Positions 15,652-58,484 of a DNA stretch of 64,000 nt are shown piece by piece (the first letter of the stretch is position 1; each line of letters begins with the position of its first letter). The notes below the pieces were generated by a model. The model ran no database searches. It was not told the DNA's origin and saw only the letters and a list, made by a program, of their open reading frames with translations. Source of the stretch: an uncultured delta proteobacterium (GTDB taxonomy: Bacteria > Myxococcota_A > Polyangia > Polyangiales > Polyangiaceae); NCBI GenBank assembly GCA_963716725.1, contig CAVQUB010000032.1:32001-96000 (forward strand), written 5' to 3'. The translations under genes were made by a program, and so were the position numbers.

Positions 15652-15881
15652 TGCCCGAGTTTCGCCGAATTCGCGCCCGCGGGGAACGGTCCTTGTCGTG
15701 TGTTCAGCCTGGGCAGACGTTCGCGCCGACGGATGCGCAGTGATTTTCTGTTCACTCCCGGGATCGGCTCTGGTACGGAGGATGCGCCGCTTCTCCGGGA
15801 AGCGAGGAGGAACACGCTGTGAGATCGAAGAAGCGCGGCTCTCGAGCTGCCGGCGCTGTGCGCACGCGCAGGCTGAACGCA

Positions 15882-18377
15882 ATGTCGGTGGCAGGCAAGA
15901 AGCCCGTTGCGAAGCGGAAGCCCGTCGCAACGAAGAAGCCCGTGGCGAAGCGCAAGCCCGTCGCAACGAAGAGGCCCGTCGCGAAGCGGAAGCCCGTTGC
16001 AACGAAGAAGCCCGTCGCGAAGCGGAAGCCCGTCGCGAAGCGGAAGCCCGTCGCAACGAAGAGGCCCGTCGCGAAGCGGAAGCCCGTTGCAACGAAGAAG
16101 CCCGTCGCGAAGCGGAAGCCCGTTGCAACGAAGAAGCCCGTTGCAACGAAGAAGCCCGTCGCGAAGCGGAAGCCGGTTGCAACGAAGAAGCCCGTTGCGA
16201 AGCGGAAGCCCGTCGCAACGAAGAAGCCCGTTGCGAAGCGGAAGCCCGTCGCAACGAAGAAGCCCGTTGCAACGAAGAAGCCCGTCGCGAAGCGGAAGCC
16301 CGTCGCGAAGCGGAAGCCGGTTGCAACGAAGAAGCCCGTCGCGACGAAGAAGCCCGTTGCGACGAAGAAGCCCCTCGCGGGCCCTCCGGCTCGACCCGAG
16401 GCCGCGCCAGCTGTCGGCTATCCCGAGTCCGCCGCGAGCCAGGTACTCCAAGCCGCGGACTCGCACTCCGCAGCGCCGCTCGTGGGAGGAGGCGGCAAGC
16501 TCGCCGTGCGAGTGGGTCGGCTGCCGCCCCGCGGCGAGGCTGTCGGCGCGACCCCCCGGAACAGCGCGCGGCCGGCGATGGCCGCGCCCGCGAGCCGAGC
16601 GCCCGCGAGCCAAGCGCCCGCGAGCCAAGCGCCCGCGAGCCAAGCGCCCGCGAGCCAAGCGCCCGCGGTTACGCCGCCGCCGCCGCGTCCCGCGTTCGAC
16701 GACGCCTCCTGGCAGCGCGTCGAAGACGTCGCGCGCGAGCTCGACCTTTCAGAGCTCAGCGGCGATCAGCGCAAGGCCATTCGCGCCGCGCTCGAAGGCC
16801 GCGACGCGGTGGTCTCGATGCCATCGGGGCTCCCGCGTGCGGCGTGCTTCGTGATCCCGTCGCGGCTCCTCATGCAGCCGGTGCTGGTCGTGGGACCGCG
16901 CCCGGCGATCCTGCGAGAGTTGCACGACCGATTGAGCCAGCGCCGAGTTCCGGCCATTCGCTACGACTCGAGCCTCACTGATAGCGCGAATCGCCAGGCT
17001 CTGGACCGCATCGCTGCGGGTGGCCCCCTGGTGGTCTTGACGACCGCCACCGCGCTCATCCAAGACGAGGCACTCCGCGCGCTCTCGCGCTCCGGAGTTG
17101 CGTTGATCGCTGTCGACGACGCGCAGGTTGCGACCGCGGCCACGGACGAGTTCAACCCCGCGACCACCGACCTGAGCCGGGTGTTCGACCGCCTCGGTCG
17201 GCCCCCGGTCATGGCCTTGATGGGGGCTGCGGCGCCGGCGGCGCGGCACGAAGTCGTCGACGCGCTCGCGCTCCGGTCTCCCGTCCACGTCGAGGCGCCG
17301 CTGCTACGCAAGAACGTCGTGCTCGACGTGCTCGACCTGCGCGGGGAGGCTCGGCAGAGGGCGTTGGTGCAGTTGGTGATGTCCCTGCGCAGACCCGGGG
17401 TGATCTTTGCGCCGACGGCCCGGGAAGTGGACTCGATCTACGGATCCCTCACGGCTTTGCGCTTGCCGGTGCACCGCTACCACCCGCACATGCCGCCGGG
17501 CGACCGCGTCGGAGAGCAGCTCAACTTCGTGCTGCCCGGACGCCGCTCGATCATGGTGGCGACCAGCGCATTCGGTACGGCGTCTGGGCTGGTCGGAGTC
17601 GGGGAGGCAGCGCTTCTCGACAAGGCGCCACAAGATTTCGGCTTGTGCTTCGAGAAGCGAGATCTGCGATTTGTGCTGCATTGGTCCGCGCCGGCATCTC
17701 TCGAGCAGTACCTGCGCGAGATCAGCTTGGCAGGGCGCGACGGCGAAGAGAGCACCTGCGTGCTCTTCCACGATGGCAGCGATCGCGCGCGACACGAGGC
17801 GCTCCTGGCCCAGTCGCGGATCCCGTCGCGGCACCTGACCCACCTGGCCAAGGCGCTCGAGGTGGCGGCCATCGATGGGCGTCCGCGCACGCTCGAGTCG
17901 CTGGCCTTGTCGAGCGGGCTCAGTCGCAAGTTGACCGAGATCCTAGCGGCAGTCCTGGACGATGCCCGCCTGGTGAACGTGGATCAGGGGTGGCTGCGCG
18001 TCGTGGTCCCGGCGCCGGCGCTCGCGGCGGGGGCGCAGCGACTGGCGTCGCGCCTAGACCGGCTCCGCAGTCAGGACGGAAAGCGTCTCACGGCGATCAG
18101 CAACTACGTCGACACCGTGGGTTGCCGGGTCGCCGCACTGTCTCGCTATTTCGGCGACCTCGGTGCACCGGCCTGCGGACGCTGTGGGGGCTGCAAGGGC
18201 AGCTTGGTTCCCGGATTCGACGGCGATGCGGCCCTCGAAGGTGGGCACACGCGGCGGACGGCTGCGGAGGCTTTCAGTCTCGGCGGCGCCGAAGCGTTCG
18301 GCATGGGCGTTGCCGAGCCGTGCCAAGGGGCTCGCCCACTCACCGTGAAGATCGCCGACTTCCGGCGCGGACGCTGA
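15882..18377 (+). CDS. RecQ-like helicase homolog with degenerate ATPase motifs and an N-terminal histone-like basic repeat
   Basis: RecQ layout kept (GRDAVV.MP, VATSAFG, RFVLHW.APASLEQY..E...AGRDG, Zn site CR..LSRYFG...CGRCGGC), but motif I = MPSGLPRA and motif II = DDAQ. Confidence 0.85.
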   Translation: MSVAGKKPVAKRKPVATKKPVAKRKPVATKRPVAKRKPVATKKPVAKRKPVAKRKPVATKRPVAKRKPVATKKPVAKRKPVATKKPVATKKPVAKRKPVATKKPVAKRKPVATKKPVAKRKPVATKKPVATKKPVAKRKPVAKRKPVATKKPVATKKPVATKKPLAGPPARPEAAPAVGYPESAASQVLQAADSHSAAPLVGGGGKLAVRVGRLPPRGEAVGATPRNSARPAMAAPASRAPASQAPASQAPASQAPASQAPAVTPPPPRPAFDDASWQRVEDVARELDLSELSGDQRKAIRAALEGRDAVVSMPSGLPRAACFVIPSRLLMQPVLVVGPRPAILRELHDRLSQRRVPAIRYDSSLTDSANRQALDRIAAGGPLVVLTTATALIQDEALRALSRSGVALIAVDDAQVATAATDEFNPATTDLSRVFDRLGRPPVMALMGAAAPAARHEVVDALALRSPVHVEAPLLRKNVVLDVLDLRGEARQRALVQLVMSLRRPGVIFAPTAREVDSIYGSLTALRLPVHRYHPHMPPGDRVGEQLNFVLPGRRSIMVATSAFGTASGLVGVGEAALLDKAPQDFGLCFEKRDLRFVLHWSAPASLEQYLREISLAGRDGEESTCVLFHDGSDRARHEALLAQSRIPSRHLTHLAKALEVAAIDGRPRTLESLALSSGLSRKLTEILAAVLDDARLVNVDQGWLRVVVPAPALAAGAQRLASRLDRLRSQDGKRLTAISNYVDTVGCRVAALSRYFGDLGAPACGRCGGCKGSLVPGFDGDAALEGGHTRRTAAEAFSLGGAEAFGMGVAEPCQGARPLTVKIADFRRGR
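15894..16379 (+). repeat. 18-bp coding tandem repeat, 27 units, encoding (K/T)(R/K)KPVA
   Basis: Units such as AAGCGGAAGCCCGTCGCA / ACGAAGAAGCCCGTCGCG, counted from the translation (486 bp). Confidence 0.95.
16584..16667 (+). repeat. 15-bp coding tandem repeat (APASQ x5.6)
   Basis: GCGCCCGCGAGCCAA repeated. Confidence 0.9.
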
Positions 18378-24784: not shown

Positions 24785-25786
24785 TCAGCGGGCGCTATTC
24801 GACCAGGTCTGCAGGATCTGAATGTAGTTGGCGCGTTCGTAGGCGCGCGGATCGGGGCAGCGCAGCAGGCTCATGCTGCCGTGCATCTGCGCGACCGACT
24901 CGTATTCGTGCGTTTCGAGCCAGCCCTCGAGGCCGGCCAGCATGGTTGCGAAATGCCCGGGCCCGTGGCGGAGAACGGCGCTCACGATCTGGACGGCGTT
25001 GGCGCCGGCCATGATGGCTTTGACCGCGTCGGTGGGCTCGTGCACGCCGCCGGTGACCGCGAGGGATTTGGCGAAGCGTCCGTGCAAGATGGCGAGCCAG
25101 CGCAAGCGCAAGAGCAGCTCGCTCGAGCTCGAGAGTTGGAGCTGATGGCGGATCTCGAGCTCCTCGACGTCGATGTCCGGCTGGTAGAAGCGGTTGAACA
25201 CCACGAGTCCCGCCACACCAGCGTCGGTGAGGCGCTTGGCGAAATGCGACAGCGCAGTGTGAAAGGGCGAGAGCTTGACTGCCAGTGGAACTTGGATGCT
25301 TTGCTGGATGTCCGCCACCATCGACGAAATGCGGGCCTCGATATCCTCGGCGCTCTCTTCGACGTCGGCGGCGAGCTGGTACACGTTGAGTTCGAGGGCG
25401 TCCGCGCCCGCGTCCTGCATCAGCTTCGCGTAGCGCAGCCAGCCGCGCGGCGTCACGCCGTTCAGCGAGCCGATGACGGGGACATCGAGTTCGCGTTTCA
25501 TCCGCGCGAGGGCCTCCAGATACTCCGCGGGGCCGAGCGCGTAGCCGACGGGCGGCACAAGCCAGCCGTCGGCCTCGGCGAATTCGCCGCGGCCCGGGCC
25601 TGCGTGCCGATCGTGGGCGAGCTCTTCAGCAGCGAGTTGCTCTTCGAAGAGCGAATGCATCACCACGGCCGCTGCGCCGGCGTCCACCGCGCGCCGGACC
25701 GCGTCGAGGTCGTGAGCCAGCGGGGAGGCACCCAGCACCAGAGGGTTCTTCAGCGTCAGACCCAGGTAGCGAGTCGAAAGATCCAT
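24785..25786 (-). CDS. Dihydroorotate dehydrogenase-like FMN protein (nifJ-associated type)
   Basis: MDLSTRYLGLTLKNP, SLFEEQ, ADALELN, VKLSP, FNRFYQPDID, YERANY. Confidence 0.88.
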   Translation of the reverse strand: MDLSTRYLGLTLKNPLVLGASPLAHDLDAVRRAVDAGAAAVVMHSLFEEQLAAEELAHDRHAGPGRGEFAEADGWLVPPVGYALGPAEYLEALARMKRELDVPVIGSLNGVTPRGWLRYAKLMQDAGADALELNVYQLAADVEESAEDIEARISSMVADIQQSIQVPLAVKLSPFHTALSHFAKRLTDAGVAGLVVFNRFYQPDIDVEELEIRHQLQLSSSSELLLRLRWLAILHGRFAKSLAVTGGVHEPTDAVKAIMAGANAVQIVSAVLRHGPGHFATMLAGLEGWLETHEYESVAQMHGSMSLLRCPDPRAYERANYIQILQTWSNSAR

Positions 25787-25787
25787 G

Positions 25788-28700
25788 TCATTTCTCCGTG
25801 GGCAGCGAGAAGCGCGCGAGCTCACCGTACAGCACCAGGCGTCGCTTGGCGTCCTGCTCCGCCTCCTTCATCAGCTTGGCGAAGCGTGTCGGGTTGGCGC
25901 GCTCCACCATGCTGTAGCGCGCCTCGTTTCGGGCGTACTCGAGCAGGTTGCCCTTGGGGGGCCCCGAGTCCAGCTGCAATGGCGGGTCGCCTCGATCCGT
26001 GCGCTGGGGATCGTAGCGGAAGAGGTTCCACACCCCGGACTCGACCGCGAGCTTCTGCTGCCGTGGGCCGTGGACCAAATCGTAGCCGTGAGCGATGCAG
26101 TGGCTGTAGGCGATGATGATCGAAGGCCCGTCGTGGGCCTCGGCCTCGACGAAGGCGCGCACTGTCTGGGCGTCCTTGGCCCCGTAGGCGACGCGTGCCA
26201 CGTAGACGTGACCGTAGCTCATGGCGATCAGGCCAAGGTCCTTCTTTGCGATGGACTTGCCGCTGGACGCGAACTTGGCCGACGCGCCCCGCGGCGTCGC
26301 CTTGGACTGTTGGCCACCGGTGTTGGAATAGACCTCGGTGTCGAGCACGAGCACGTTGACGTTCTTGTCCGACGCCAGGACGTGGTCGAGACCGCCAAAT
26401 CCAATGTCGTAGGCCCAACCGTCGCCGCCGACGATCCAGACGCTCTTTTCGACGAGGTAGTCGGCGACCTGATTCAGCTGCCGTGCGTCGAGGGAGCTTT
26501 GCGAGGCCAGCTTGCCACGCAGCGCTTGGACTCGGTCCCGTTGGGCGATGATCCCAGCTTCGTCGGCCTGCCGCGCGTCGAGGATGCCTTGGGCGAGCTC
26601 ACCGCCGATGACGCTCTCGAGAGAGCGAACGAGGTGCTGGGCGCGTTCCCGGAGATAATCGACCGAGAGGCGCATTCCGAAGCCGAACTCCGCGTTGTCT
26701 TCGAAGAGGGAGTTCGACCAGGCCGGTCCGCGCCCGTCTCGATTGGTGGTGTATGGGGTGGTCGGCAAGTTGCCGCCGTAGATAGACGAGCAACCCGTGG
26801 CGTTGGCGATCAGGAGCCGGTCACCAAAGAGCTGGGTAAGTAGTTTGACGTAGGGCGTTTCGCCGCAGCCCGAGCAGGCGCCCGAGTACTCGAACAAGGG
26901 CTCGAGCAGCTGGCTCTCTTTCACGTCGAGCTTGACGCTCTGTCGCTGCACTTCGGGCAGCTTCAGGAAGAAGTCATAGTTTTCGCGCTCGACGGCCCGC
27001 AGCGGCGCCTGGGGCGCCATGTCGATGGCCTTGTGGCGTGGGTTCGACTTGTCTTTGGCGGGACAGACCGCCACACACACACCGCAGCCCGTGCAGTCCT
27101 CGGGCGCGACCTGGAGCGTGTAGCTCTTGCCCGCGAACTCGCCGCTCTTCCACTGGGTGCTCTTGAACGTCGATGGCGCGTGGGTCGAACTCTCCGCGTC
27201 ATACACTTTGGCGCGAATTGCGGCGTGCGGGCAGACCATCGCGCACTTGTTGCACTGAATGCAGAGGGGCGCGTCCCACACCGGGATCTCTTGGGCGAGG
27301 TTGCGCTTTTCAAAACGCGCGGTGCCCACCGGCCAGGTGCCGTCGACCGGAAACGCGCTGACCGGCAGCAGATCGCCCTTGCCAGCGAGGATCATGGCCG
27401 AGACCCGCTGGACGAAGTCGGGAGCTTCGACCGGGACTGGTGGCGTTCGGCGTTGGCCCTTCGCTTCGCCGGATGGCGGCGAGAAGCGCGCGAGCCGGTC
27501 GAGCGCGGCGCGGGCCGCGGCCACGTTCCGGTGGACGAGCTCGTCGCCCCGCGAGCCGTAGCTCTTCTTGATGGAATCTTCGATCTGACGAAGGGCTTCG
27601 TCCCGGGGCAGCGCGCCGGAAAGCACGAAGAAGCAGGTCTGCATCACGGTGTTGATGCGGCCGCCGAGCCCGTGCTCGCGCGCGAGCTCGTGCGCGTCGA
27701 TGACGTGACACTCCAGCTTCTTGTCCAAGATGGTCGTTTGCACTTCGCGAGGCAGCGCGTCCCAGAGCTCCGAGCCGCTGTGCGGGGCGTTGAGCAAGAA
27801 GATCGACCCCTCGCGCGCAGTGGCCAAGACGTCGTAGCGGTCGAGCAGGTCGAACTGATGGCAGGCGACGAGTTCGGCTTCGTCGATCAGGTAGGGAGCA
27901 CGGATGTGCTGCGGACCGAAGCGCAGGTGCGAAACGGTCACGGCGCCCGACTTCTTCGAGTCGTAGACGAAATAGCCTTGGGCGTGGCCTGAGGTTTCTT
28001 CGCCGATGATCTTGATGGAGCTCTTGTTGGCGCCGACGGTGCCGTCGGAGCCGAGGCCCCAGAACACCGCGCTGTAGGTCTCGCCTTGGGGGACGTGGAA
28101 GCTCGGATCGACCTCGAGCGAAAGATTCGACACGTCGTCGACGATGCCGACCGTGAACACCGGCTTGGCCGAGGGCCTTCCGAGCTCGTCGAAGACGGCC
28201 TTTGCCATGGCTGGCGTGAACTCTTTGGACGAGAGCCCGTAGCGCCCCGCGACGACGCGCGGCTTGGGTGATCTCGTCGCGTCGTTGGCCAGGGTTGCCA
28301 CGACGTCCAAGTAGAGCGGCTCGCCGGGGGCACCCGGCTCCTTGGTTCGGTCGAGTACCGCGATGCTTCGAACCGACTCGGGCAGCGCACTCAGGAGGTG
28401 GGTCGGGGAAAAAGGCCGATAGAGCCGGACCTTGAGCACGCCGACGCGCTCACCGCCCGCCACCATGGTTTCGACCGTCGAGTGCACCGTCTCGGCGCCG
28501 GAGCCCATGATCACGATCACGCGGTCGGCGTCAGGGTGCCCGACGTAGTCGAACAACCGGTAGCGCCTGCCGGTCTCTCGCTCGAACTCGGACATCGCCG
28601 TTTCGACGATTCCCGGGCACGCCGTGTAGAAGCCGTTGATGGCCTCGCGCGCTTGGAAGAACGTGTCGGGATTCTGCGCCGTGCCGCGCAGCACGGGCCG

Positions 28701-29336
28701 GTCTGGGGTGAGCGCTCGGGCGCGGTGTGCGCTGATGGCATCTTCGGGGATCAACCTACGGAGCGAGGCGTCGTCGATGCTCTCGATCTTCGCGATCTCG
28801 TGGGAGACGCGAAAGCCGTCGAAGAAATGCAAGAAGGGCACCCGAGCGCGGAGCGTCGCGACGTGGGCGATCGCCGCAAGGTCTTGCGCCTCTTGCACTG
28901 AACCCGAGCACAGGAGCGCGAAGCCTGTCCCCCGACACGCCATCACATCCGAGTGATCACCGAAAATGCTGAGAGCGTGGGTCGCGATGGTGCGCGCTGC
29001 GACGTGCAGCACGCAGGGCGTGAGCTCGCCCGCGATCTTGAACATGTTGGGGATCATGAGCAAGAGCCCCTGCGACGCGGTGAAGGTGGTGGCGAGGGTG
29101 CCCGCTTGAAGCGCACCGTGGACGGTTCCTGCAGCGCCTCCCTCGGACTGCATCTCCATCACGCTCGGGACGGCGTCCCAGAGGTTTCGATCGCCCTGGG
29201 CGGCCCACGCGTCGGCGTGCTCCCCCATGGCGGAGGCCGGGGTGATCGGGTAGATGGCGATCACTTCGCTGGCGCGGTAGGCGACGGACGCGACGGCTTC
29301 GTTGCCATCGACTGCAATGTGCCGAGCTGAGCTCAT
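25788..29336 (-). CDS. nifJ: Pyruvate:ferredoxin (flavodoxin) oxidoreductase
   Basis: AIYPITP, MQSEGGAAG, GLGSDGTVGANK, two CxxCxxCxxxCP motifs, NATGCSSIY, GGDGWAYDIG, YSNTGGQ. Confidence 0.97.
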   Translation of the reverse strand: MSSARHIAVDGNEAVASVAYRASEVIAIYPITPASAMGEHADAWAAQGDRNLWDAVPSVMEMQSEGGAAGTVHGALQAGTLATTFTASQGLLLMIPNMFKIAGELTPCVLHVAARTIATHALSIFGDHSDVMACRGTGFALLCSGSVQEAQDLAAIAHVATLRARVPFLHFFDGFRVSHEIAKIESIDDASLRRLIPEDAISAHRARALTPDRPVLRGTAQNPDTFFQAREAINGFYTACPGIVETAMSEFERETGRRYRLFDYVGHPDADRVIVIMGSGAETVHSTVETMVAGGERVGVLKVRLYRPFSPTHLLSALPESVRSIAVLDRTKEPGAPGEPLYLDVVATLANDATRSPKPRVVAGRYGLSSKEFTPAMAKAVFDELGRPSAKPVFTVGIVDDVSNLSLEVDPSFHVPQGETYSAVFWGLGSDGTVGANKSSIKIIGEETSGHAQGYFVYDSKKSGAVTVSHLRFGPQHIRAPYLIDEAELVACHQFDLLDRYDVLATAREGSIFLLNAPHSGSELWDALPREVQTTILDKKLECHVIDAHELAREHGLGGRINTVMQTCFFVLSGALPRDEALRQIEDSIKKSYGSRGDELVHRNVAAARAALDRLARFSPPSGEAKGQRRTPPVPVEAPDFVQRVSAMILAGKGDLLPVSAFPVDGTWPVGTARFEKRNLAQEIPVWDAPLCIQCNKCAMVCPHAAIRAKVYDAESSTHAPSTFKSTQWKSGEFAGKSYTLQVAPEDCTGCGVCVAVCPAKDKSNPRHKAIDMAPQAPLRAVERENYDFFLKLPEVQRQSVKLDVKESQLLEPLFEYSGACSGCGETPYVKLLTQLFGDRLLIANATGCSSIYGGNLPTTPYTTNRDGRGPAWSNSLFEDNAEFGFGMRLSVDYLRERAQHLVRSLESVIGGELAQGILDARQADEAGIIAQRDRVQALRGKLASQSSLDARQLNQVADYLVEKSVWIVGGDGWAYDIGFGGLDHVLASDKNVNVLVLDTEVYSNTGGQQSKATPRGASAKFASSGKSIAKKDLGLIAMSYGHVYVARVAYGAKDAQTVRAFVEAEAHDGPSIIIAYSHCIAHGYDLVHGPRQQKLAVESGVWNLFRYDPQRTDRGDPPLQLDSGPPKGNLLEYARNEARYSMVERANPTRFAKLMKEAEQDAKRRLVLYGELARFSLPTEK

Positions 29337-29845
29337 CTTGGCTCCAAGGTTCGTTTGGGGGCCGGTACGGCCGGATTCACTTGGCTACTCCGCCGCGGAG
29401 TCGGCGCGGCGGATACGTCGTGCGATCGCACAGTTAGTACGGGGCAGGGGGCCATGTCGAGCACGCGGCGCGTGACGCTACCGAAGCTCTCGGGATCGCC
29501 TCCCGACGCCGCCACGCCCATCACCATCAGATCGAAGTGTTCACTGGCGGCCAAGGTCACCAGAACCTCGTGGGGTACGCCGACCTCGACTCGGATGTGC
29601 ACGGCGTCTCCGCCGACCATGCGGCGCAGCGCGTGCATGGCATTTTCCCGCGCAAGCTGGCTGAGGGCCGTCGGGCTTTCCGCGTGTGCCTGCGTCGTCA
29701 GCGGCACGCCCTGCGGGGGCGGCCACACATAGACGACGTCGAGGCTGGCGCGCGTCCGCGTGGCCATTGCCAGGCCGACGCGGAATGCCTCGCTTGCGTC
29801 GCCCGAGAAGTCCGTGGCGACCAGGATACGTCGAAGCGAGTTCAT
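29333..29845 (-). CDS. Universal stress protein
   Basis: RRILVATDFS, DLMVMG, GSVTRRV...APCPVLTV. Confidence 0.9.
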   Translation of the reverse strand: MNSLRRILVATDFSGDASEAFRVGLAMATRTRASLDVVYVWPPPQGVPLTTQAHAESPTALSQLARENAMHALRRMVGGDAVHIRVEVGVPHEVLVTLAASEHFDLMVMGVAASGGDPESFGSVTRRVLDMAPCPVLTVRSHDVSAAPTPRRSSQVNPAVPAPKRTLEPR

Positions 29846-31122
29846 CAGAGCGCCGAACGCATGAGTTCGTCCCTCGAGGTGCCGTACTCGTGCAACTTGT
29901 ACTGGATTTTGCGGACGCTGATCCCGAGCACCCGCGCCGCCCGTGACGTGCTGCCACCGTTGGCTGCAAGCGTCTGCAAGATGGCGTAGCGCTCGATGTC
30001 GGAGAGGCGAGCGCCGGGGATCACCGGCCGCGGTGGAGCGACGCCGGCGGGCAGCGTCAAGTGCTCTGTGCGGATGAGCCCCGATTTGCAGCGCGCCCGC
30101 GCCGCATCCAGTACCTGCCTGAGCTCGGGGATGTTGTTTGGCCAGTCGTAGCGGCGCAGGCGGTTGACCGCTTCGGCGCTCAGACCCGGGCCGCCCGATC
30201 CCATCAGCGAGCGCGCCAGAGGGATCAGATCTTCACGCCGTTCACGCAGCGTGGGCACCCGGACATCGACGACGCAGAGCAGGTGAGCGAGATCGTCGCG
30301 GCAGCGACCGCTCGACGCCAGCACGCTTGGCGGCAACGAGCCCGACGACACCACGCGAACCTGGCGCGCGGAGCTTCGGCTCGAAGGCAGCGCGTCGAGA
30401 AGCGCCCCCTGGGTGCCGGGTGGGAGCTCGCCGAGGTCCTCGACGTAGAGGGTTCCGCCCATGGCGCGAGCCACGGCGTCTTGGACCTCGTCCCGAGAGT
30501 GCCCCAAGGTTTGCTCGGCGACCTGGCGGCAACCGAAATGGACGAACGGCCCGCTGGCGTGAACAGAAAGAGCGTGAATCGTTCGGGCCAGGCGCGTGCG
30601 CCCCGTGCCCGCCTCGCCGTACAGGTAGACGTTTGCATGGGTCGGAGCGACGCGCGCCAGTTGACGCACGCACTCACGCATCTCCTGCGACTCAGCCACG
30701 ACGCCGGGCAGTTCCGTCTCCGCGGGTTTGGCTGGCAGCTCCGGCCCGCGTTCCGCGCTCTCGAGGGCCTGCGATACGACTGCGAAGAGGCGCGTGGAGT
30801 CCAGGGGCTTGACCACGAAATCGAGGGCGCCCTCTCGCATCGCGCCAAGCGCGGCGTCCACGCTGCTGAAGCCGGTCATCACCACGACCGGTGCGCCGAT
30901 ATCGGAGCGCCGCAGTCGACGGATCAGCTCCACGCCGTCCATCGAAGGCATGCAGAGATCAGTCAGAATCAGATCGGGCCGGCTCTCTTCGGCCCGGCTC
31001 AGGGCTTTGAAACCATCGCTGGCCGTATCCACGACGTAGCCGGCCTCACGGAGCAGCTCGGCCAGCGCCATCCGCGCTGCGCCCTCGTCATCGACCACCA
31101 AGATGTGCGCTGGATTTCCCAT
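29845..31122 (-). CDS. NtrC-like response regulator (REC - degenerate AAA+ - Fis HTH) lacking GAFTGA
   Basis: Intact REC (VVDD, TDLCMP, TG, KP); Walker A GEAGTGRT, Walker B LYVED, no GAFTGA, RDDLAHLL; HTH ARVLGISVRKIQYKL. Confidence 0.85.
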   Translation of the reverse strand: MGNPAHILVVDDEGAARMALAELLREAGYVVDTASDGFKALSRAEESRPDLILTDLCMPSMDGVELIRRLRRSDIGAPVVVMTGFSSVDAALGAMREGALDFVVKPLDSTRLFAVVSQALESAERGPELPAKPAETELPGVVAESQEMRECVRQLARVAPTHANVYLYGEAGTGRTRLARTIHALSVHASGPFVHFGCRQVAEQTLGHSRDEVQDAVARAMGGTLYVEDLGELPPGTQGALLDALPSSRSSARQVRVVSSGSLPPSVLASSGRCRDDLAHLLCVVDVRVPTLRERREDLIPLARSLMGSGGPGLSAEAVNRLRRYDWPNNIPELRQVLDAARARCKSGLIRTEHLTLPAGVAPPRPVIPGARLSDIERYAILQTLAANGGSTSRAARVLGISVRKIQYKLHEYGTSRDELMRSAL

Positions 31123-31148
31123 GAGCGTCCCTTTCCAGGGCCGACAGA

Positions 31149-31164
31149 TGCATCCACCGTGCCC
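31149..31164 (-). promoter_or_regulatory. sigma54 promoter for the regulator-USP-nifJ-DHOD operon
   Basis: Minus strand GGGCACGGTGGATGCA (GG-N10-GC); paired upstream sites at 31206-31220 and 31236-31250. Confidence 0.6.
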
Positions 31165-31259
31165 CAGCTACTCACGCCAAAGTTTGGTCAATTCCGGCTT
31201 CCATCACGCGCCGTCTGCGGCGGCGCGCATCCGCGACGAAACTTTTGCGCACGCGGCGT

Positions 31260-32726
31260 TCACTCGCGGACTTGGGGTGGGAATCGGATCGTGAACTGGG
31301 TGCGCCCCGGACGGGAGTCGAAGTGGATGGTCCCGCCGTGCTCGCGGACGATGCGGTGCACGATGGCCAGCCCCAGTCCCGTGCCCGCCTCCTTGGTCGT
31401 GTAGAAAGCGTCGAAGATCGGGGCGTTTTCGTCGAGGCCCGGTCCCGTGTCTGCGACGATCGCTTCCACGCCCCCCTCGGCGTCCGAGCGCACCGCGAGA
31501 TCGAGCACGCCGCCGCTGGCTTGCATGGCCTCGATTGCGTTGCGCATCAGGTTGAGCATGATCTGTCGGAGCCTCGGGGGGTCGCCGTCGATACAGGAGT
31601 CTTGCTCCAGCCGAAGGTCGATGGTGACTCGCGCGGCCTCGGCCTCGGGGCGAAGCTGTGCGATCACGGAGGCGACGAGCTCCGACAGATCCACGGACTC
31701 GAGCACGAGGGGGTTCGGGCGCGCAAACGCCAAGAAGTCGGAGACCAAGCGATCGAGCCTCCGGATCTCGTCGTGGACGATTTCGACCACGGGAACGAGC
31801 AGCTCGGGGGTGTTTTGTCCGCGCTCGACCCGACGTCGCAGCACTTGCAGCTGGAGCGTGGCCGAGTTCAGGGGGTTGCGCACTTCATGGGCGAGGCCTG
31901 CGGCCAGCGTGCCCACCGCGGCCAGGCGCTCGTCCATCAAGGTCCGGCGCTGTGCTGCGCGTTCCGACGTCACGTCGATGCCCACGGCCAACGTGGATGG
32001 TGCGACGTGGGCCAGCTGCCATCGGATCCATCGATGGCCGCCCGACTTCAACGCGAGCCGCCGCTCGCCGCCCTCGCCTACGAGATCGCGCCCCGGTTGC
32101 CCGAGCATCTCTTCCCGCGACAAGCCCGTGACCTCTTCGAGCCTGCGGTTCCAGACCTGGATCTCGCCCTCGGCGCCCAGGGCCATCACCAGCGCTGGGA
32201 CGGCCTCCACGAGCTCGCGGTGGCGGGATTCGGATTCTTCCAGCGTGGCCGCGCGTTCGGCGCCGCGCACGCTCTTCGACAGTTGGTCGTGGTAGGCGTC
32301 GAGCAGGACGGCGAGCTCGAGATCCACGAGCGCGCGAATCGCGGACTCTCCGGCTGTGAACCTGCCTGGCTCGCGGAGCCACACCCGGCGAACCAGCTGG
32401 ATCAGGCCGGCGCGAAGTCGAGTGGTCGCGACCAACAACGAACAAGCGGGAAGCCCCAAGCGCACGTACATACTGCCGACGCGCTCGAGGCCTTCGATCC
32501 AAGCGTGGTCGTGTGGGCCCGAGAGCGACGTCGCGAGCTGAGCTTCCAGCGCGAGCTCGACGCGATTGGGGTCGACCACCGCGTTTCGCACGATTGTTTC
32601 GTGGAATTCTTCCGCGAGGCGGCGAAGCTCCGGAGTGGCGAGGGGCGCGAGCTCCGCCAAGGTGCCCTCGGCGGCGGCATCGAAGCCGACGCAGCGTCGA
32701 ATCCGCTCGAAGTCAGCTGGTTCCAT
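31260..32726 (-). CDS. Globin-coupled sensor histidine kinase (sensor globin - PAS - HisKA - HATPase)
   Basis: N-terminus resembles AfGcHK-type globin (F..I.R.VGF...E..L..L, LAEEF, SGP.D, VRLGL, LDLELAV); H-box LAHEVRNPL, N-box NLMRNA, DTGPG, FYTTK, GTGLGL. Confidence 0.85.
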   Translation of the reverse strand: MEPADFERIRRCVGFDAAAEGTLAELAPLATPELRRLAEEFHETIVRNAVVDPNRVELALEAQLATSLSGPHDHAWIEGLERVGSMYVRLGLPACSLLVATTRLRAGLIQLVRRVWLREPGRFTAGESAIRALVDLELAVLLDAYHDQLSKSVRGAERAATLEESESRHRELVEAVPALVMALGAEGEIQVWNRRLEEVTGLSREEMLGQPGRDLVGEGGERRLALKSGGHRWIRWQLAHVAPSTLAVGIDVTSERAAQRRTLMDERLAAVGTLAAGLAHEVRNPLNSATLQLQVLRRRVERGQNTPELLVPVVEIVHDEIRRLDRLVSDFLAFARPNPLVLESVDLSELVASVIAQLRPEAEAARVTIDLRLEQDSCIDGDPPRLRQIMLNLMRNAIEAMQASGGVLDLAVRSDAEGGVEAIVADTGPGLDENAPIFDAFYTTKEAGTGLGLAIVHRIVREHGGTIHFDSRPGRTQFTIRFPPQVRE

Positions 32727-32769
32727 CTACGGTCTCGGCAACCCGCGGGCTCTGCTCGCGCGGGTCGCG

Positions 32770-33234
32770 TCAGGCCTCGGTCTCGGCGGTGCGCACCGTG
32801 AGTACCGGACACGACGCGCGTCGCACGACCTTCTCGGCAACGCTGCCCAGGAGCAAGTGCGCAAACCCGCTGCGTCCGTGCGTTCCCATCGCGATCAGGT
32901 CGTAGCCATCGCTATCGGCGAGGGTCACGATGGTATGCGATGGGTCTCCTTGCTCGACGCGCGTGTTTGCGATCTCGATGCCGTCCTCGCGCGCCTGAGC
33001 AACGAACTCTCGCATCGCTGCCTGGGCCTGATCGCTAGCGAGCTGTGCGAGTGTCTGCGTCGTGCCCGCCGCCCCGACCATCGCTTCCGGCGCGATGAAG
33101 GCCGGTGCCTCCCACACGTAGAGCAGGTCGATGGTGGCGTTGAAGCTCTTGGCCAACATGGCCGCGTGCTCGAGGGCTGATCGCGAGCAGGCCGAGTAGT
33201 CGACGGGAACCAGGATGCGGCGCAGGTTGTTCAT
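32770..33234 (-). CDS. Universal stress protein
   Basis: [39 protein letters not shown]. Confidence 0.95.
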
Positions 33235-33740
33235 TTGGGATCTCCTTTGAGCGAGGCGTGTTCGTCTGAGCCGTCGCGCTCACCAGGCTCGGTCATCGGT
33301 ATCACCAGCACGGGGCAGGGTGCGAGCCTGACCACGCGTTCCGCCACGCTCCCCAGCACGACGCGTCGCGCCCCGGTGCGGCCGTGGGTCCCAAGCACCA
33401 GCAGATCGACGCCGGAAACCTTCGCTCGCTGCAGGATTACGCCGGAGGCGTCGCCGACCTCGTAGCTCACCGTGACCATCGCGCGGTCCTCGGCCGAGAG
33501 AGGCGCCAGGAACCGCTCGACCTGGGCCTTGGCTTGATCCTCGGCCAGCTCCCAGAGGGGCCGCGGGCCGACCGCAGCCCAGACCAGGATGCTCGGCTGG
33601 ACGTAGGCGGGCACGCTGTGGACGTGCAGCACCTCGAGCGTCGCCGCGAACCGACGCGCCAGGGACAGCGCCGTGAGCAAGGCCGCCCGCGAAGGATCCG
33701 ATGTGTCGATGGGGCAGAGGATGCGACGATAGCCGGTCAC
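33231..33740 (-). CDS. Universal stress protein
   Basis: [43 protein letters not shown] start at 33740. Confidence 0.93.
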
Positions 33741-34330
33741 GGGGATCTCTCTCGAGCAAGTCTCATGCCGCTCAGGGGCGGTGGTCGGGGACGGCGTAGC
33801 CCTCGGATTCGAGCCAGCCACCGCAACACGTCGAGGGAGCTCAAGATCCCCACCACCTTGCCCGCCTCCGAGACGACAGGAACGCGGTGGACGCCTTCGA
33901 GGGCCATCAGGGCCGAAGCGCGCGCGATGGAGGCGCTAGAAGGCATGGTGAACGCGAGGGGAGTCATCACGTCACGCACGGTCGCGTCCCTGAATTGCTC
34001 GACGTGCATTCCCCGGTCGAGCCGGGCCTGGATCCCGCCGCTGCTCACGGCCGGGCTGCTCCGCTCCAGCGTGTCTCCGCGATCGGCGAAGTCTCGGAGC
34101 AGATCGGTCTTGGACACGACGCCAAGGGCGCGACCCGAGGCGTCCACCACTGGCGCTCCGCTGATCCCACGTTCTAGAAACAAAGCTAGCAGCGCCTCGA
34201 TGCTCAGGTCCGGCGACACCGAGACGACGTGGTGAGTCATCACCTCGGAGACGGGGGTGGTATCGGCTGGACCGGCCTCCTGACCTGCCGGGCGCTGAGC
34301 GGCGCCGACGGATTCCAATTTGGAACTCAT
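33737..34330 (-). CDS. CBS domain protein
   Basis: VSEVMT, ISGAPVVD..G..LGVVSKTD, VRDVMTP, VHRVPVV...GKVVGILSSLD; GAGG Shine-Dalgarno before ATG 34330. Confidence 0.9.
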   Translation of the reverse strand: MSSKLESVGAAQRPAGQEAGPADTTPVSEVMTHHVVSVSPDLSIEALLALFLERGISGAPVVDASGRALGVVSKTDLLRDFADRGDTLERSSPAVSSGGIQARLDRGMHVEQFRDATVRDVMTPLAFTMPSSASIARASALMALEGVHRVPVVSEAGKVVGILSSLDVLRWLARIRGLRRPRPPPLSGMRLARERSP

Positions 34331-34344
34331 GATGTCATCCTCTC

Positions 34345-34388
34345 GCGCACTGCCTGCGCCGCCAGAGCAACCAGCGCACCCATTGCGC
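34345..34388. promoter_or_regulatory. Paired palindromic putative activator sites GCGCA-N5-TGCGC
   Basis: GCGCACTGCCTGCGC (34345-34359) and GCGCACCCATTGCGC (34374-34388), 29 bp apart. Confidence 0.6.
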
Positions 34389-34423
34389 AGGTCTGCTTCG
34401 ACGCCGTCGGCGAAGGCCCGAAT

Positions 34424-34439
34424 TGCAAGTGTCGAACCA
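34424..34439 (-). promoter_or_regulatory. sigma54 promoter for CBS-USP-USP-kinase genes
   Basis: Minus strand TGGTTCGACACTTGCA (GG-N10-GC, TTGCA). Confidence 0.6.
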
Positions 34440-34455
34440 GGGCATGTACGTTGCA
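34440..34455 (+). promoter_or_regulatory. sigma54 promoter for the CBS gene at 34501
   Basis: GGGCATGTACGTTGCA (GG-N10-GC, TTGCA). Confidence 0.65.
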
Positions 34456-34500
34456 TCGTATCAGCGCTAGAACCGCGCACGGAAGAGAGGATTTCGAGCA

Positions 34501-34917
34501 ATGGTCGTCCAAGAAGTCATGACCGAGGATCCGATCACCGCACAGTCCAGCACCGCCATCGGGACAGTGTTGAACACTCTCTTCGAGAGCGACGTCAGGC
34601 ACCTGCCCATCGTCGACGGCGATCAGCTCGTTGGTATCGTGAGTGATCGCGACCTGCGCGCATTCCTTGCCCCGTCAATGCTCGAGTTCGAAAAGCCCGA
34701 GGACGTGCGCAAGCGCCTGGCTCAGCCGGTGTCCACCGTGATGAACGCGGACGTGGTGAGCGTCACTCCCGAGACGGACTTGTCCGAGGTCATCGAGATG
34801 ATGATCGATCAGAAAGTCGGCGCCGTACCCGTCGTGCAGCCGGGAACCGACGAGCTGGTGGGCATCGTCAGCTACATCGACGTACTTCGGGCGGCCCAAG
34901 ACCTCTTCGAAGAGTGA
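34501..34917 (+). CDS. CBS domain protein
   Basis: VQEVMT, VRHLPIVDGDQLVGIVSDRD, VGAVPVV...LVGIVSYID. Confidence 0.93.
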   Translation: MVVQEVMTEDPITAQSSTAIGTVLNTLFESDVRHLPIVDGDQLVGIVSDRDLRAFLAPSMLEFEKPEDVRKRLAQPVSTVMNADVVSVTPETDLSEVIEMMIDQKVGAVPVVQPGTDELVGIVSYIDVLRAAQDLFEE

Positions 34918-34939
34918 TCCGGGCGTGCGGTCGCGCCGC

Positions 34940-35893
34940 TCACGCGGCCGGCCACGCGATGCGATGCTGCGGCTCGTAGCCCAGTTGGTCGCGAGCGCGG
35001 CGACCGTCGAGCACGGCGCTGAAATGGAAGCGCCGATGGTTGAGATCGTAGCGGAAGTCCATTCCGAGCGCGTTTGCGCGCAGGGCGTAGAGCGGTGCCA
35101 GTAACGGTCCCGGCACCGGGACCTCGAGCCGACCCCAGAGTCGGATCGCGGACGAGAGCGGTAGGACGTCGGCGCCAGGGACGTTGAACACGCCGTTGGT
35201 CCGGCCGCTCGCGGCGAGCACGAGCGCCCGGGTGGCGTCCTCGAGCGAGAGCAGGTTCAGCATGGGGTCGAAGCCGAGGGGCCGAAAGCACACTCTCGAG
35301 GAGAGGTAGTCGTGAAGCTGGCTGCCGACGTTCGCGGCCAGGATTTCCGCGCAGCGGAGCACCACCACTTCCAGTCGCGACATGCCCATGCGTGTGCACA
35401 CCGTCAGGTCTGCCTCCACGCGATCTCTCACTTTCTGCGGCGCGCTCGGGGAGAGATCGAGCGGGTCGTCTTCGACGAGCAGCGTGGAACGGCGCGGGTC
35501 CAGGCGGTAGACGGCGCCGGCGCTTCTAAACACGAAACGCCGGATGCTGGGGTGGCGCTCGGCCAAAGCCAGGAGCTGGCGGGTACACTCGACGTTCAAA
35601 GCGTGAACGCGGGCGCCCTCGGCGCGAGCGCGTCGGTGCAGCGCGTTGTGAATGATCACCTCGATCCCGAGCTCCCGCGCGTCCGCGAAGAGGAGGTCGT
35701 GAAGCTCCCTCGAGCGCGTCAGATCCACCTGTCGATAGCGGTAGCGCGCCGAGGCCTGGCCCCCCAGCGGCATCGGATCGGGCTCGGCGCCGACGGCGAG
35801 CACCAGCTCGGTAGCCGGGTCGGCCAGCAGCGCGCCGATCAGCTGACCGCCGAGGGGCGTCGTCGCGCCCGTGACCAACACCCTCATCGTCAC
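34940..35893 (-). CDS. NAD-dependent epimerase/dehydratase family protein
   Basis: VLVTGATTPLG, GFDPMLNLLSLED, GVFNVPG; paralog of 20096-21016. Confidence 0.85.
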   Translation of the reverse strand: MTMRVLVTGATTPLGGQLIGALLADPATELVLAVGAEPDPMPLGGQASARYRYRQVDLTRSRELHDLLFADARELGIEVIIHNALHRRARAEGARVHALNVECTRQLLALAERHPSIRRFVFRSAGAVYRLDPRRSTLLVEDDPLDLSPSAPQKVRDRVEADLTVCTRMGMSRLEVVVLRCAEILAANVGSQLHDYLSSRVCFRPLGFDPMLNLLSLEDATRALVLAASGRTNGVFNVPGADVLPLSSAIRLWGRLEVPVPGPLLAPLYALRANALGMDFRYDLNHRRFHFSAVLDGRRARDQLGYEPQHRIAWPAA

Positions 35894-36726
35894 CAGAGTC
35901 CCTCCCTCTGGGCGAGTCCACGGGAGATGAGCGTCTGGACGGACTCCTTGACCACGCGCGCTGCGTCCCGCACCGCGGTCGGATCGTCGGCATCGCCGAA
36001 ACGCTCCGACAGTAACAGTGGCTCGCCGTAGTGCAGGTGGAGACGCACGGGCAGGGGCAGCGGGGTGGCGGGAATGGGCAAGAACGGTGCGCCGAAGGCG
36101 TGAAACGAGTCGATGCGTCCGATCCCGGGCCAGGCTTCCTCGGCGCCCACCACGGCCACCGGGATCACCGGCACGCGATGACGGAGCGCGAGCTCGGCGT
36201 GGCCGACTCGCCAGTCCTGGAGCTCGTAGCGCTTGCGAAACCCCTTGCCGATGCCGGGCACGCCCTCGGGGAACACCAGCACGAGTTCACCGGTCTCGAG
36301 CAAATGGCGGAAGTTCCCAGCGCTCCCGGCCACGACGCCCAGCCGGCTGAAGGTCGTGCCCACCCAGGGCAGGAGCGGGATGAAGATGTCGCCGATGACG
36401 CGGGCGACTCGCGGCGGCGATGTGCGGCGGGCCACGTCTGCCACGATCATGGCGCCGTCGATCGGCAAGAGGCCGCCGTGGTTGGCCGCCAGGATCGCGG
36501 CACCGGTCTTCGGCAGGTGCTCGGCGCCGTAGCTGACCACTCGGAAGTAGCGTTCGTAAGCGAAGCGCAGGACCCCGAGCGCGGTGGAGAAAGCCGTGGG
36601 ATCGAAGCCCAGGACGTCGAACCCGTGGCCCGCGTCGTTGAAGGCGAGCCGTCGCAGAGCGTCGCGCTGTCCCTGGTCGAGCAAGGCGCGAGAGAGCGAT
36701 TGGTGGATACGGCGGCGGAGAGACAT
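35890..36726 (-). CDS. Lysophospholipid/glycerol acyltransferase (PlsC family)
   Basis: NHGGLLPID, VFPEG, PVIPVAVVG; start trimmed to ATG 36726. Confidence 0.9.
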   Translation of the reverse strand: MSLRRRIHQSLSRALLDQGQRDALRRLAFNDAGHGFDVLGFDPTAFSTALGVLRFAYERYFRVVSYGAEHLPKTGAAILAANHGGLLPIDGAMIVADVARRTSPPRVARVIGDIFIPLLPWVGTTFSRLGVVAGSAGNFRHLLETGELVLVFPEGVPGIGKGFRKRYELQDWRVGHAELALRHRVPVIPVAVVGAEEAWPGIGRIDSFHAFGAPFLPIPATPLPLPVRLHLHYGEPLLLSERFGDADDPTAVRDAARVVKESVQTLISRGLAQREGLW

Positions 36727-36731
36727 GGAAG

Positions 36732-37565
36732 CTAGAACCGCGGCCCTGCCGGGCTGGTCAGCAGCAAGCTGCAAGGTGCCGAGCGGAGCAGGCGCTCGGC
36801 GGTCCCACCGAGGAACACCCTTCGGAGGCCGGCAAGTCCGGTGCGACCGAGGATCAGCAGATCTGTCCCCTCTTTCGCCGCCAGCTGTCGAAGGGCTTCG
36901 TCCGCTCGGCCCGACGCGCTGCGGAGCGAGCCGAGCAGGTTCGAGCAACAGGTGCTTTCCACGAACTCGTTGACCTGCTCCAGGCGCGCGTCGAGGTCTG
37001 CCCGCTCGTCGGGGCGGGCCGTGAGCATGGGGTCTTCGACGACGTGCACCACCGTGGGGGTCGCAGCAAACCGCTCGCAGAAGTCCGACGCGAAGACCAA
37101 CGCCTCACGCGATGCGGCGGATCGATCGACCGCTACCATCACGCGGGCCAGGCCGGGCTCGCGCCTTGGACGGCTAATCCAGACCGGCTGCCGGGCAAAG
37201 CGTCCGACGGTTGCGGCCGTGGCGCCGGTGCCGGCGTCGCCGCTGGCGCGGTCTCCGGCCCCAATCACGATCAGGCTCGAGTCGAGGGCCTCTGCGGTGT
37301 GGATCAGGGCTTCGGCAGCGCTGCCCTGGGTCACCCGTTCTTCGCCCACGCTCGCTCCCGCGGCGAGTAGCGCCTCGCGCCAAACCGCGAGTTCGCGCCG
37401 TGAGCGAGCATCGTCATCGGAGCTCGTCCTCGGATAGGGCGGGTGCACATGCACGACGTCCACCGGCACCGAATACGCTCGCGACAGCATTGCCGAGTCG
37501 AAGCGAGCCAACTCGGCGGCCTTGCCGAAATCGGTGGCGAGGAGGATTCGAAGCAGTCCGGCCAT
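36732..37565 (-). CDS. Universal stress protein (two tandem USP domains)
   Basis: RILLATDFG, LIVIGA; VMVAVD.S, DLLILGRTG...LGGTAERLLRSAPCSLL. Confidence 0.88.
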   Translation of the reverse strand: MAGLLRILLATDFGKAAELARFDSAMLSRAYSVPVDVVHVHPPYPRTSSDDDARSRRELAVWREALLAAGASVGEERVTQGSAAEALIHTAEALDSSLIVIGAGDRASGDAGTGATAATVGRFARQPVWISRPRREPGLARVMVAVDRSAASREALVFASDFCERFAATPTVVHVVEDPMLTARPDERADLDARLEQVNEFVESTCCSNLLGSLRSASGRADEALRQLAAKEGTDLLILGRTGLAGLRRVFLGGTAERLLRSAPCSLLLTSPAGPRF

Positions 37566-37579
37566 GGACAATCGACCTT

Positions 37580-48918: not shown

Positions 48919-48921
48919 CGC

Positions 48922-58482: not shown

Positions 58483-58484
58483 GG

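Follow-up and report, generated by a model that had tools for sequence, protein, structure and literature searches.

We identified a globin-coupled histidine kinase in which heme-based O2 sensing has probably stopped. Its gene lies on a stretch of 64,000 nucleotides (referred to as the window) of contig CAVQUB010000032.1, which belongs to an uncultured delta proteobacterium of the family Polyangiaceae. In the sensor globin that forms the N-terminus of this kinase, the proximal His that normally holds the heme (position F8 of the globin fold) is replaced by a Tyr (Tyr87), a change shared by all three members of its clade, and the distal Tyr (position B10) is replaced by a His (His42) in the window allele only. 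We favour the reading, with a probability of about one half, that the domain is an O2-blind, probably heme-free sensor globin which is retained as a folded N-terminal structural or transmission module. The loss of the F8 His has become fixed, B10 drifts, a Tyr at the dimer interface is repeatedly lost as well and the pocket shows additional changes; together these observations suggest that the O2 signalling path was dismantled and not that the heme ligation was re-arranged. The reference protein for these positions is AfGcHK from Anaeromyxobacter sp. Fw109-5, in which His99 is the axial heme ligand and Tyr45 recognizes O2, the six-coordinate heme representing the active state and the five-coordinate Fe(II) heme the inactive state (PMC8697598; this and the other papers are cited from excerpts). 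A further residue of AfGcHK, Tyr15, stabilizes its globin dimer when the kinase is active (PMC8076648).

Pocket residues in the window protein and its orthologs

The initial annotation had proposed that the residues at B10 and F8 were exchanged relative to AfGcHK, with a shortened segment between them. On the minus strand, His42 in LAEEFHETI is indeed encoded by CAC at 32603-32601, and Tyr87 in ERVGSMYVRLGL by TAC at 32468-32466. A phmmer search against the chains of the PDB returned three distinct sequences at E ≤ 10. In the alignment with the AfGcHK globin (5ohe_A, E 6.6e-14), H42 is opposite Tyr45 in LAEEFYDRI and Y87 is opposite His99 in RIGRVHVRIGLP. The globin-coupled sensor of Geobacter sulfurreducens (2w31_A, E 2.7e-05) likewise places a Tyr opposite H42 and a His opposite Y87, and the Azotobacter vinelandii sequence (4uii_A, E 0.28, not significant) places a His opposite Y87. 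Both correspondences are therefore present in the AfGcHK and G. sulfurreducens alignments, and no other His takes the F8 position, as Tyr87 faces a His in all three. The segment from B10 to F8 is nine residues shorter than in AfGcHK, in the form of gaps of five and four residues, and the same nine columns are missing in comparison with the nearest PAS-containing relatives.

The window protein thus has neither of the residues (F8 His and B10 Tyr) that characterize heme-binding globin-coupled sensors. It also lacks the dimer-interface Tyr of AfGcHK, having Cys12 in a column that is Tyr in 230 of the 271 stored relatives that were aligned to the query profile. Other family-conserved positions have changed as well. 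At the start of helix G a Gln-x-Tyr motif (Gln in 89% and Tyr in 75% of the 265 sequences with the canonical F8 His) has become Ala/Pro-Cys-Ser in the clade, and Met101 has become Thr. The E-helix Trp at position 63, found in 268 of the 271 relatives, is lost in the window's clade only. Overall, the clade keeps 31-32 of 47 family-conserved columns, compared to 37.3 ± 4.5 in canonical members. All three clade members have Cys12 and Cys95, and a Cys is present at these columns in only 5 and 3 of the 271 relatives, respectively.

Two close homologs (P0001 and P0002), both 488 amino acids long, were all that a word-indexed search identified among 5.8 billion protein clusters, and HMMER, run exhaustively against 1.84 billion cluster representatives, returned 334 relatives at E ≤ 1e-3, of which only one exceeded 40% identity. 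P0001 (98% overall identity to the window protein) combines Tyr at B10 with Tyr at F8, and P0002 (85% overall identity) combines Cys at B10 with Tyr at F8, against His and Tyr in the window protein. The expectation that orthologs would share both substitutions therefore holds for F8 (Tyr in three of three) and fails for B10, where the orthologs have Tyr or Cys. Position 42 is the sole column of the 488 in which the three proteins have three different residues. A coordinated exchange of the two residues is not supported by this pattern, and the apparent swap is best described, from the alignment, as a coincidence of one strain. His42 hangs on one base of one sequence and may be a sequencing error. 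The same explanation, or a pseudogene, was considered for Tyr87 and rejected, because Tyr87 is common to three independent sequences of identical length.

The globin domains of the window protein and P0001 differ at six sites. P0002 agrees with P0001 at positions 21, 63 and 94, with the window protein at positions 4 and 54, and with neither at position 42. Based on these states, His42, Gln63 and Ala94 appear to be recent changes in the lineage of the window, all of them in family-conserved columns. A contig search for DNA of the orthologs matched 213 stretches, two of which passed tblastn, and both of these encode unrelated kinases that match residues 274-483.

Repeated loss of the proximal histidine in the family

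To place these substitutions, the two positions were counted in the 271 relatives. Of these, 265 have His at F8 and 258 have Tyr at B10, and His at B10 occurs in none. The six exceptions at F8 are P0001, P0002, P0062 and P0152 with Tyr, P0092 with Phe and P0145 with Gln. P0092 and P0145 have also changed at B10 (Ser and Arg, respectively). The kinase regions of these two proteins are full-length and align across the kinase of the query, and thus ligand-less globin kinases do exist.

P0062 and P0152, which are 83% identical to each other, have Tyr at F8 combined with Thr (P0062) or Cys (P0152) at B10. In a targeted search for relatives of P0062, 119 of the 120 matches listed have Tyr at B10 and His at F8, and P0153, which follows at 56% identity, is canonical. 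The nearest named relative of this lineage is from a metagenome-assembled genome of a Planctomycetota member. The lineage appears to be a second, independent case of the pattern of the window's clade, with Tyr fixed at F8 and B10 drifting. Since F8 Tyr is fixed and B10 variable in two independent lineages, B10 looks released from constraint and not recruited as a ligand.

The nearest relatives of the window protein outside its clade (P0088, P0010, P0075, P0007, P0031, and P0022; 42-48% identity) are globin-PAS-kinases and all have the F8 His and the E-helix Trp. The nearest outside relatives of each of the other lineages without F8 His are canonical proteins too. A maximum-likelihood tree was built from 60 globin domains, consisting of the seven sequences without F8 His, 20 nearest neighbours and 33 random canonical sequences (more than 140 of the 159 columns filled), with columns 12, 42, and 87 omitted. 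The F8 state changes four times on this tree, and the well-supported branches force at least four changes, indicating that the F8 His was lost four times independently. The branches leading to the lineages without F8 His are long (1.57 for the stem of the window's clade, 1.37 for P0092, 1.20 for P0145, and 0.67 for the P0062/P0152 stem; median end branch 0.45). The branches of the PAS-containing sisters of the window protein are also fairly long (0.5-2.2).

All 159 columns were scanned for consensus residues that are missing in the four lineages more often than in the 265 canonical sequences. The B10 Tyr was the top co-lost column (tail probability 1e-4), followed by column 12, which corresponds to Tyr15 of AfGcHK (tail probability 3e-4); both values stand at about the Bonferroni limit for 159 columns. 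In column 12, 87% of the canonical sequences have Tyr, and the four lineages have Cys, Leu, Cys, and Ser. Globin-coupled kinases thus appear to have lost the F8 His at least four times, two of these times to Tyr, and each time together with the distal and the dimer-interface Tyr. This co-loss pattern would represent a natural experiment on the residues of the path that transmits the state of the heme to the kinase. Globin-coupled sensors are usually recognized by their proximal His, and lineages that lack it tend to drop out of surveys. Full-text literature searches gave no description of a lineage of globin-coupled histidine kinases with F8 Tyr, nor of a recurrent co-loss pattern.

Fold of the globin and readings of its altered pocket

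The protein contains four Pfam domains: Protoglobin (PF11563; residues 4-149, E 2.4e-09, 37.8 bits with a cut-off of 25), PAS (residues 170-216, E 1.8e-06, 28.3 bits with a cut-off of 22.6), HisKA (residues 272-337, E 1e-13) and HATPase_c (residues 381-484, E 2.9e-23). The kinase boxes had been described as intact, and this is confirmed by the latter two matches and by the motif residues H280, N392, N396, D426, G428, G430, F438, G448, G450, and G452, all of which occupy columns with a conservation of 90% or more in an alignment of 60 kinases. In NCBIfam no family reached its cut-off for the kinase, the best match being AtoS (204.7 bits with a cut-off of 646) over the kinase core only. Neither an RsbR N-terminal family nor a STAS domain was found among the ten Pfam matches at E ≤ 1, and the output consists of PAS and kinase. 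The AfGcHK-like architecture suggested initially is correct as to globin and kinase; the PAS domain of about 85 residues had been overlooked, and as it separates globin and kinase, the short-linker layout of AfGcHK does not apply. The PAS-containing layout is common to relatives that have the F8 His.

An AlphaFold2 model of the globin (residues 1-159, from an alignment of 96 sequences) has a mean predicted local distance difference test score (pLDDT) of 92.5, which dips to 75-80 only at residues 41-60, representing the shortened B-E connection. The six helices of the model span residues 3-13, 17-46, 53-69, 74-89, 94-115, and 120-158. Foldseek placed the AfGcHK globin (5ohf/5ohe) at the top of the PDB matches, with template modelling scores of 0.81-0.87 and a root-mean-square deviation of 1.7 Å, followed by HemAT and the G. 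sulfurreducens sensor. The sensor-globin fold is a 3-on-3 globin with an extra N-terminal Z helix and without a D helix (PMC8076648), and the model shows this arrangement. In a model of the full-length protein (from 60 sequences; mean pLDDT 91.5, and 64-79 at the B-E connection) the globin H helix (120-175) continues into the compact PAS domain. This domain has five strands (within residues 179-251) and three helices of only 4-7 residues, and judged by this secondary structure it looks too small for a cofactor. The last PAS strand joins the DHp helix (253-301) directly.

The window kinase is similar to the heme-based O2-sensor kinases AfGcHK and NmpU (Myxococcus xanthus) in its sensor-globin fold, in the N-terminal globin on a soluble HisKA/HATPase kinase, in the myxobacterial origin and in the NtrC-family regulator of the pathway (PMC11841059). 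It differs from them by Tyr in place of His99/His96, His in place of Tyr45, Cys in place of Tyr15, the nine missing B-E residues, the inserted PAS domain and a directly adjacent regulator with a degenerate AAA+ domain. The closest full-length relatives, with the same domain order, are the uncharacterized globin-PAS-histidine-kinases P0010, P0007, P0031, P0075, and P0088 (42-48% identity, about 50-54% in the kinase region), which differ in having the F8 His and the E-helix Trp throughout, B10 Tyr in four of the five, and no nine-residue deletion. P0010, the nearest relative with F8 His, has Gln at B10, and distal-pocket variation is thus already present within the PAS-containing subfamily. RsbR-type stressosome globins of Bacillus have likewise lost the heme and O2 residues, keep the fold as an input and occur alongside heme-binding relatives (PMC4976288, PMC8717448). 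The window protein is distinguished from them by a match to Protoglobin only among globin families (Pfam, E ≤ 1), by a kinase instead of STAS output and by Tyr where RsbR has Arg at the F8-equivalent position (PMC8717448). Phycobiliproteins and photoglobin are further non-heme sensor globins (PMC8717448, PMC4976288), so that loss of the heme ligand is a known kind of event, with RsbR as its precedent within the sensor-globin family.

According to the favoured reading, the ancestor would have been a member of the globin-PAS-histidine-kinase subfamily, whose other members retain the proximal His. In a small myxobacterial clade the F8 His would have become Tyr through a single C-to-T change. The remaining O2-signalling apparatus would subsequently have decayed or been remodelled by drift at B10, replacement of the dimer Tyr by Cys and of the E-helix Trp by Gln or Arg, conversion of Gln-x-Tyr at helix G to Ala/Pro-Cys-Ser and deletion of nine B-E residues. 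The globin would be kept as a well-folded helical module, with its H helix leading into PAS and the last PAS strand leading into DHp. The kinase would no longer be gated by O2 and would have a set level of activity or respond to another input, and it would phosphorylate the adjacent degenerate NtrC-type regulator, placed in what seems to be a hypoxia and fermentation island. Of the alternatives named in the initial annotation, the non-canonical or heme-less pseudo-globin fits best: the change at F8 is indeed clade-wide, and the heme-free state is plausible on these grounds.

Several observations weigh against this reading. The globin domain appears to be maintained and mildly accelerated, not decaying. 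There are no indels among the three orthologs, the identity between the window protein and P0002 is 80.5% in the globin compared to 84.9% in PAS, 98.7% in HisKA and 83.8% in HATPase, and dividing the globin distance by the kinase distance gives 1.39 for the clade against its canonical sisters and 1.22 among these sisters. As the acceleration is only mild, little weight is given to it, and a globin under constraint must be expected to do something. The F-helix/FG motif (G84, V88, R89, G91, L92, and P93) and R55 are still conserved, and the clade substitutions run to smaller or polar residues (W to Q/R, Y to S, M to T, and Y to C) and not to bulky residues that would fill a cavity. In NmpU, a canonical M. 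xanthus kinase, the H96A change of the proximal His abolishes heme binding, in line with the favoured reading, but it also removes most of the autophosphorylation (PMC11841059), and a heme-free kinase would therefore need retuning here. The clade consists of three sequences, and the heme-contact residues were assigned from the alignment and not from coordinates.

Two of these points, the conserved F-helix/FG motif and R55, also speak for the main alternative reading, in which Tyr87 ligates a five-coordinate ferric tyrosinate heme of the kind found in haemoglobin M or catalase. Heme of this type would resist reduction and not bind O2, and the kinase would be locked or would report the availability of heme or of an anionic or ferric ligand, with the residue at B10 tuning or supplying the sixth ligand. 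We put this forward only tentatively. Tyr is kept at F8 in the three clade members and in both P0062 and P0152 while B10 varies, which hints that Tyr87 is the more constrained of the two; two of the four losses led to Tyr, and the Phe of a third can be reached through Tyr by one base. The human haemoglobins M Iwate and Hyde Park have the identical F8 His-to-Tyr change at the identical structural position and keep a ferric heme (PMC4109735), ferric AfGcHK is a fully active kinase (PMC8697598), and the gene is located in a redox and hypoxia island. Haemoglobin M differs as a set of rare disease alleles of an O2 carrier, whereas the window change has become fixed in a lineage of bacterial sensors, with wider remodelling of the pocket. 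Moreover, CAC to TAC is the commonest type of single-base change, and the recurrence of Tyr may be mutational; at 81-85% ortholog identity, any given residue would be expected to persist. The Tyr that couples the state of the heme to the kinase in AfGcHK is missing in all four lineages, Trp63, Gln94 and Tyr96 are lost, nine residues are deleted beside the distal pocket, and the literature searches found no natural sensor globin with F8 Tyr. A bolder version, in which a bacterial haemoglobin M with a tyrosinate ferric heme arose at least two times in globin-coupled kinases and turned an O2 sensor into a sensor of redox poise, of the availability of heme or of a ligand of ferric heme, is speculative; in it the sixth ligand, and hence the set-point of the kinase, would be determined by the fast-changing distal residue (His, Tyr or Cys).

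The smaller and polar replacements would be accounted for, as would the conservation of the domain, if the pocket or the dimer interface had been re-purposed for a small non-heme ligand (such as a fatty acid, as in RsbR-type proteins) or for a thiol redox switch of Cys12 and Cys95. We consider this rather unlikely. It is in agreement with a confidently folded globin without indels, with the two Cys residues (one of them at the Tyr15 dimer position) that are rare in the family, with polar Gln/Arg63, Ser96, Asp52 and Glu57 in place of hydrophobic or basic residues, with the existence of non-heme globins that bind other ligands (PMC8717448) and with a compact PAS domain that offers no obvious alternative cofactor site. 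None of the searches points to a ligand, however, and the Cys conservation is that of three sequences. It is very improbable that the window protein acts as a regulatory partner, heterodimerizing with a canonical heme-binding globin kinase from another locus of the genome. Both histidine kinases and sensor globins form dimers (PMC8076648), and canonical globin kinases occur in myxobacteria, NmpU being one of them (PMC11841059), but the changed dimer-interface Tyr and the kinase's own adjacent response regulator argue against such a partner, positive support is absent, and a six-frame hidden Markov model scan of the window (588 open frames) matched this gene as its only globin. Finally, His42 as the axial ligand of a heme bound from the opposite face, as entertained in the initial annotation, would fill both axial positions together with Tyr87 in the window allele. 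With Tyr and Cys in the two orthologs, no His in the relatives and every sign of a derived single-base change in one lineage, this is scarcely credible.

The protein is tractable for asking whether a sensor globin works with a tyrosinate heme or heme-free. Because its gene is found among genes for universal stress proteins, CBS proteins, pyruvate:ferredoxin oxidoreductase and a [NiFe]-hydrogenase, it also raises the physiological question of how this myxobacterium controls low-oxygen metabolism with a sensor to which O2 may no longer bind. A simply heme-free globin would represent an ordinary case of a degenerate input domain.

Regulator, gene neighbourhood and feature coordinates

The coordinates of the kinase, its domains and altered residues, and its neighbours are listed in Table 1. 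The neighbouring response regulator gives a weak Sigma54_activat match (62.6 bits, Pfam). In the alignment with LuxO (5ep0), its Walker A motif reads GEAGTGRT (Lys to Arg), a gap of seven residues falls at GAFTGA, and the Walker B residues DE are changed to ED. The GAFTGA loop and the Walker A Lys of bacterial enhancer-binding proteins are thus both missing, and the regulator is probably a sigma54-independent, ATPase-inactive DNA-binding protein. A scan for the sigma54 -24/-12 consensus with at most two mismatches gave 29 matches compared to 22.9 ± 5.0 expected, showing no enrichment. A sigma70 and terminator scan of 24.5-35.5 kb gave no promoters and one terminator-like site, both below expectation, and Rfam detected no family at gathering score anywhere in the 64 kb.

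Table 1. Position, strand and basis of assignment of the kinase features and neighbouring genes in the window (USP, universal stress protein).
Feature	Coordinates	Strand	Basis
Whole gene, soluble histidine kinase of 488 amino acids (sensor globin, short PAS, HisKA/DHp, HATPase_c)	31260..32726	-	Open reading frame with ATG start; Pfam; AlphaFold2 model
Sensor-globin (Protoglobin-family) domain, residues 1-159	32250..32726	-	PF11563; AlphaFold2; Foldseek
Cys12, aligned with AfGcHK Tyr15 (globin-dimer residue)	32691..32693	-	Alignment
His42, codon CAC, B10 (distal Tyr) position, in LAEEFHETI; this allele only	32601..32603	-	AfGcHK alignment; orthologs
Shortened B-to-E connection, residues 47-53; nine residues fewer than AfGcHK and nearest relatives	32568..32588	-	Alignment gaps
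Gln63 (E helix; Arg in both orthologs), Trp in 268/271 relatives	32538..32540	-	Column counts
Tyr87, codon TAC, F8 (proximal His) position, in ERVGSMYVRLGL; all three clade members	32466..32468	-	Alignment; orthologs
Ala94-Cys95-Ser96, start of helix G, in place of family Gln-x-Tyr	32439..32447	-	Column counts
Compact PAS domain, residues 168-252, globin/kinase junction	31971..32225	-	Pfam PAS; AlphaFold2 model
DHp/HisKA helices, residues 253-335; phospho-acceptor His280 (codon 31887-31889)	31722..31970	-	Pfam; alignment; model
Catalytic ATP-binding domain, N, G1, F and G2 boxes present	31263..31706	-	HATPase_c; near-invariant columns
Response regulator (REC, degenerate sigma54-type AAA+, Fis-type helix-turn-helix); presumed phosphorylation partner	29845..31122	-	Pfam; LuxO 5ep0 alignment
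Same-strand run: dihydroorotate dehydrogenase-like, pyruvate:ferredoxin oxidoreductase, USP, response regulator, kinase, USP, USP, CBS	24785..37571	-	Pfam; open reading frames
The same run, continued beyond an intervening plus-strand CBS gene: epimerase-like, acyltransferase, tandem USP	24785..37571	-	Pfam; open reading frames

The pyruvate:ferredoxin oxidoreductase encoded in the same-strand run is 1182 amino acids long. Genes for HypE-like, HypD, HypF, and HycI proteins and for subunits of a soluble [NiFe]-hydrogenase are found at 38-52 kb (Pfam), the label of group 3 for the latter being suggested by the domain set. The region 24785-51691, mostly on the minus strand, resembles a low-oxygen and fermentation island, which comprises the pyruvate:ferredoxin oxidoreductase, at least five USP domains in four genes, two CBS-pair genes, HypD, HypE-like, HypF, HycI, four types of hydrogenase subunit and a cyclic-nucleotide-binding protein. 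The DosS/DosT-DosR hypoxia regulon of mycobacteria is similar in that a two-component system is found among universal-stress-protein and anaerobic-metabolism genes. DosS and DosT differ from the window kinase in sensing via heme in GAF domains, and DosR is of the LuxR type; there is no sensor-domain homology to the window kinase.

Some minor observations concern other genes of the window, which has a G+C content of 67.5%. The RecA encoded in the window shares 87% identity with a protein from a 'Myxococcales bacterium' metagenome-assembled genome and 79-80% with proteins from 'Polyangiaceae bacterium' metagenome-assembled genomes, which points to an uncultured myxobacterium as the source. An open reading frame of 768 amino acids (46829-49135, minus strand) matches the NiFe large subunit at residues 379-464 only, corresponding to the N-terminal part of the profile. 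It overlaps the small-subunit open reading frame (48124-48918, minus strand) in another frame, and its start is probably over-extended. The sole Pfam match of a protein of 852 amino acids (15819-18377, plus strand) is the short eukaryote-derived repeat 'Cementoin' (E 7.5e-20), and it is probably a low-complexity repeat protein. An open reading frame of 403 amino acids (57856-59067, minus strand) combines an ABC-2 membrane-transporter domain (residues 2-191) with a TetR N-terminal helix-turn-helix (residues 207-253), representing either an unusual fusion or two joined genes.

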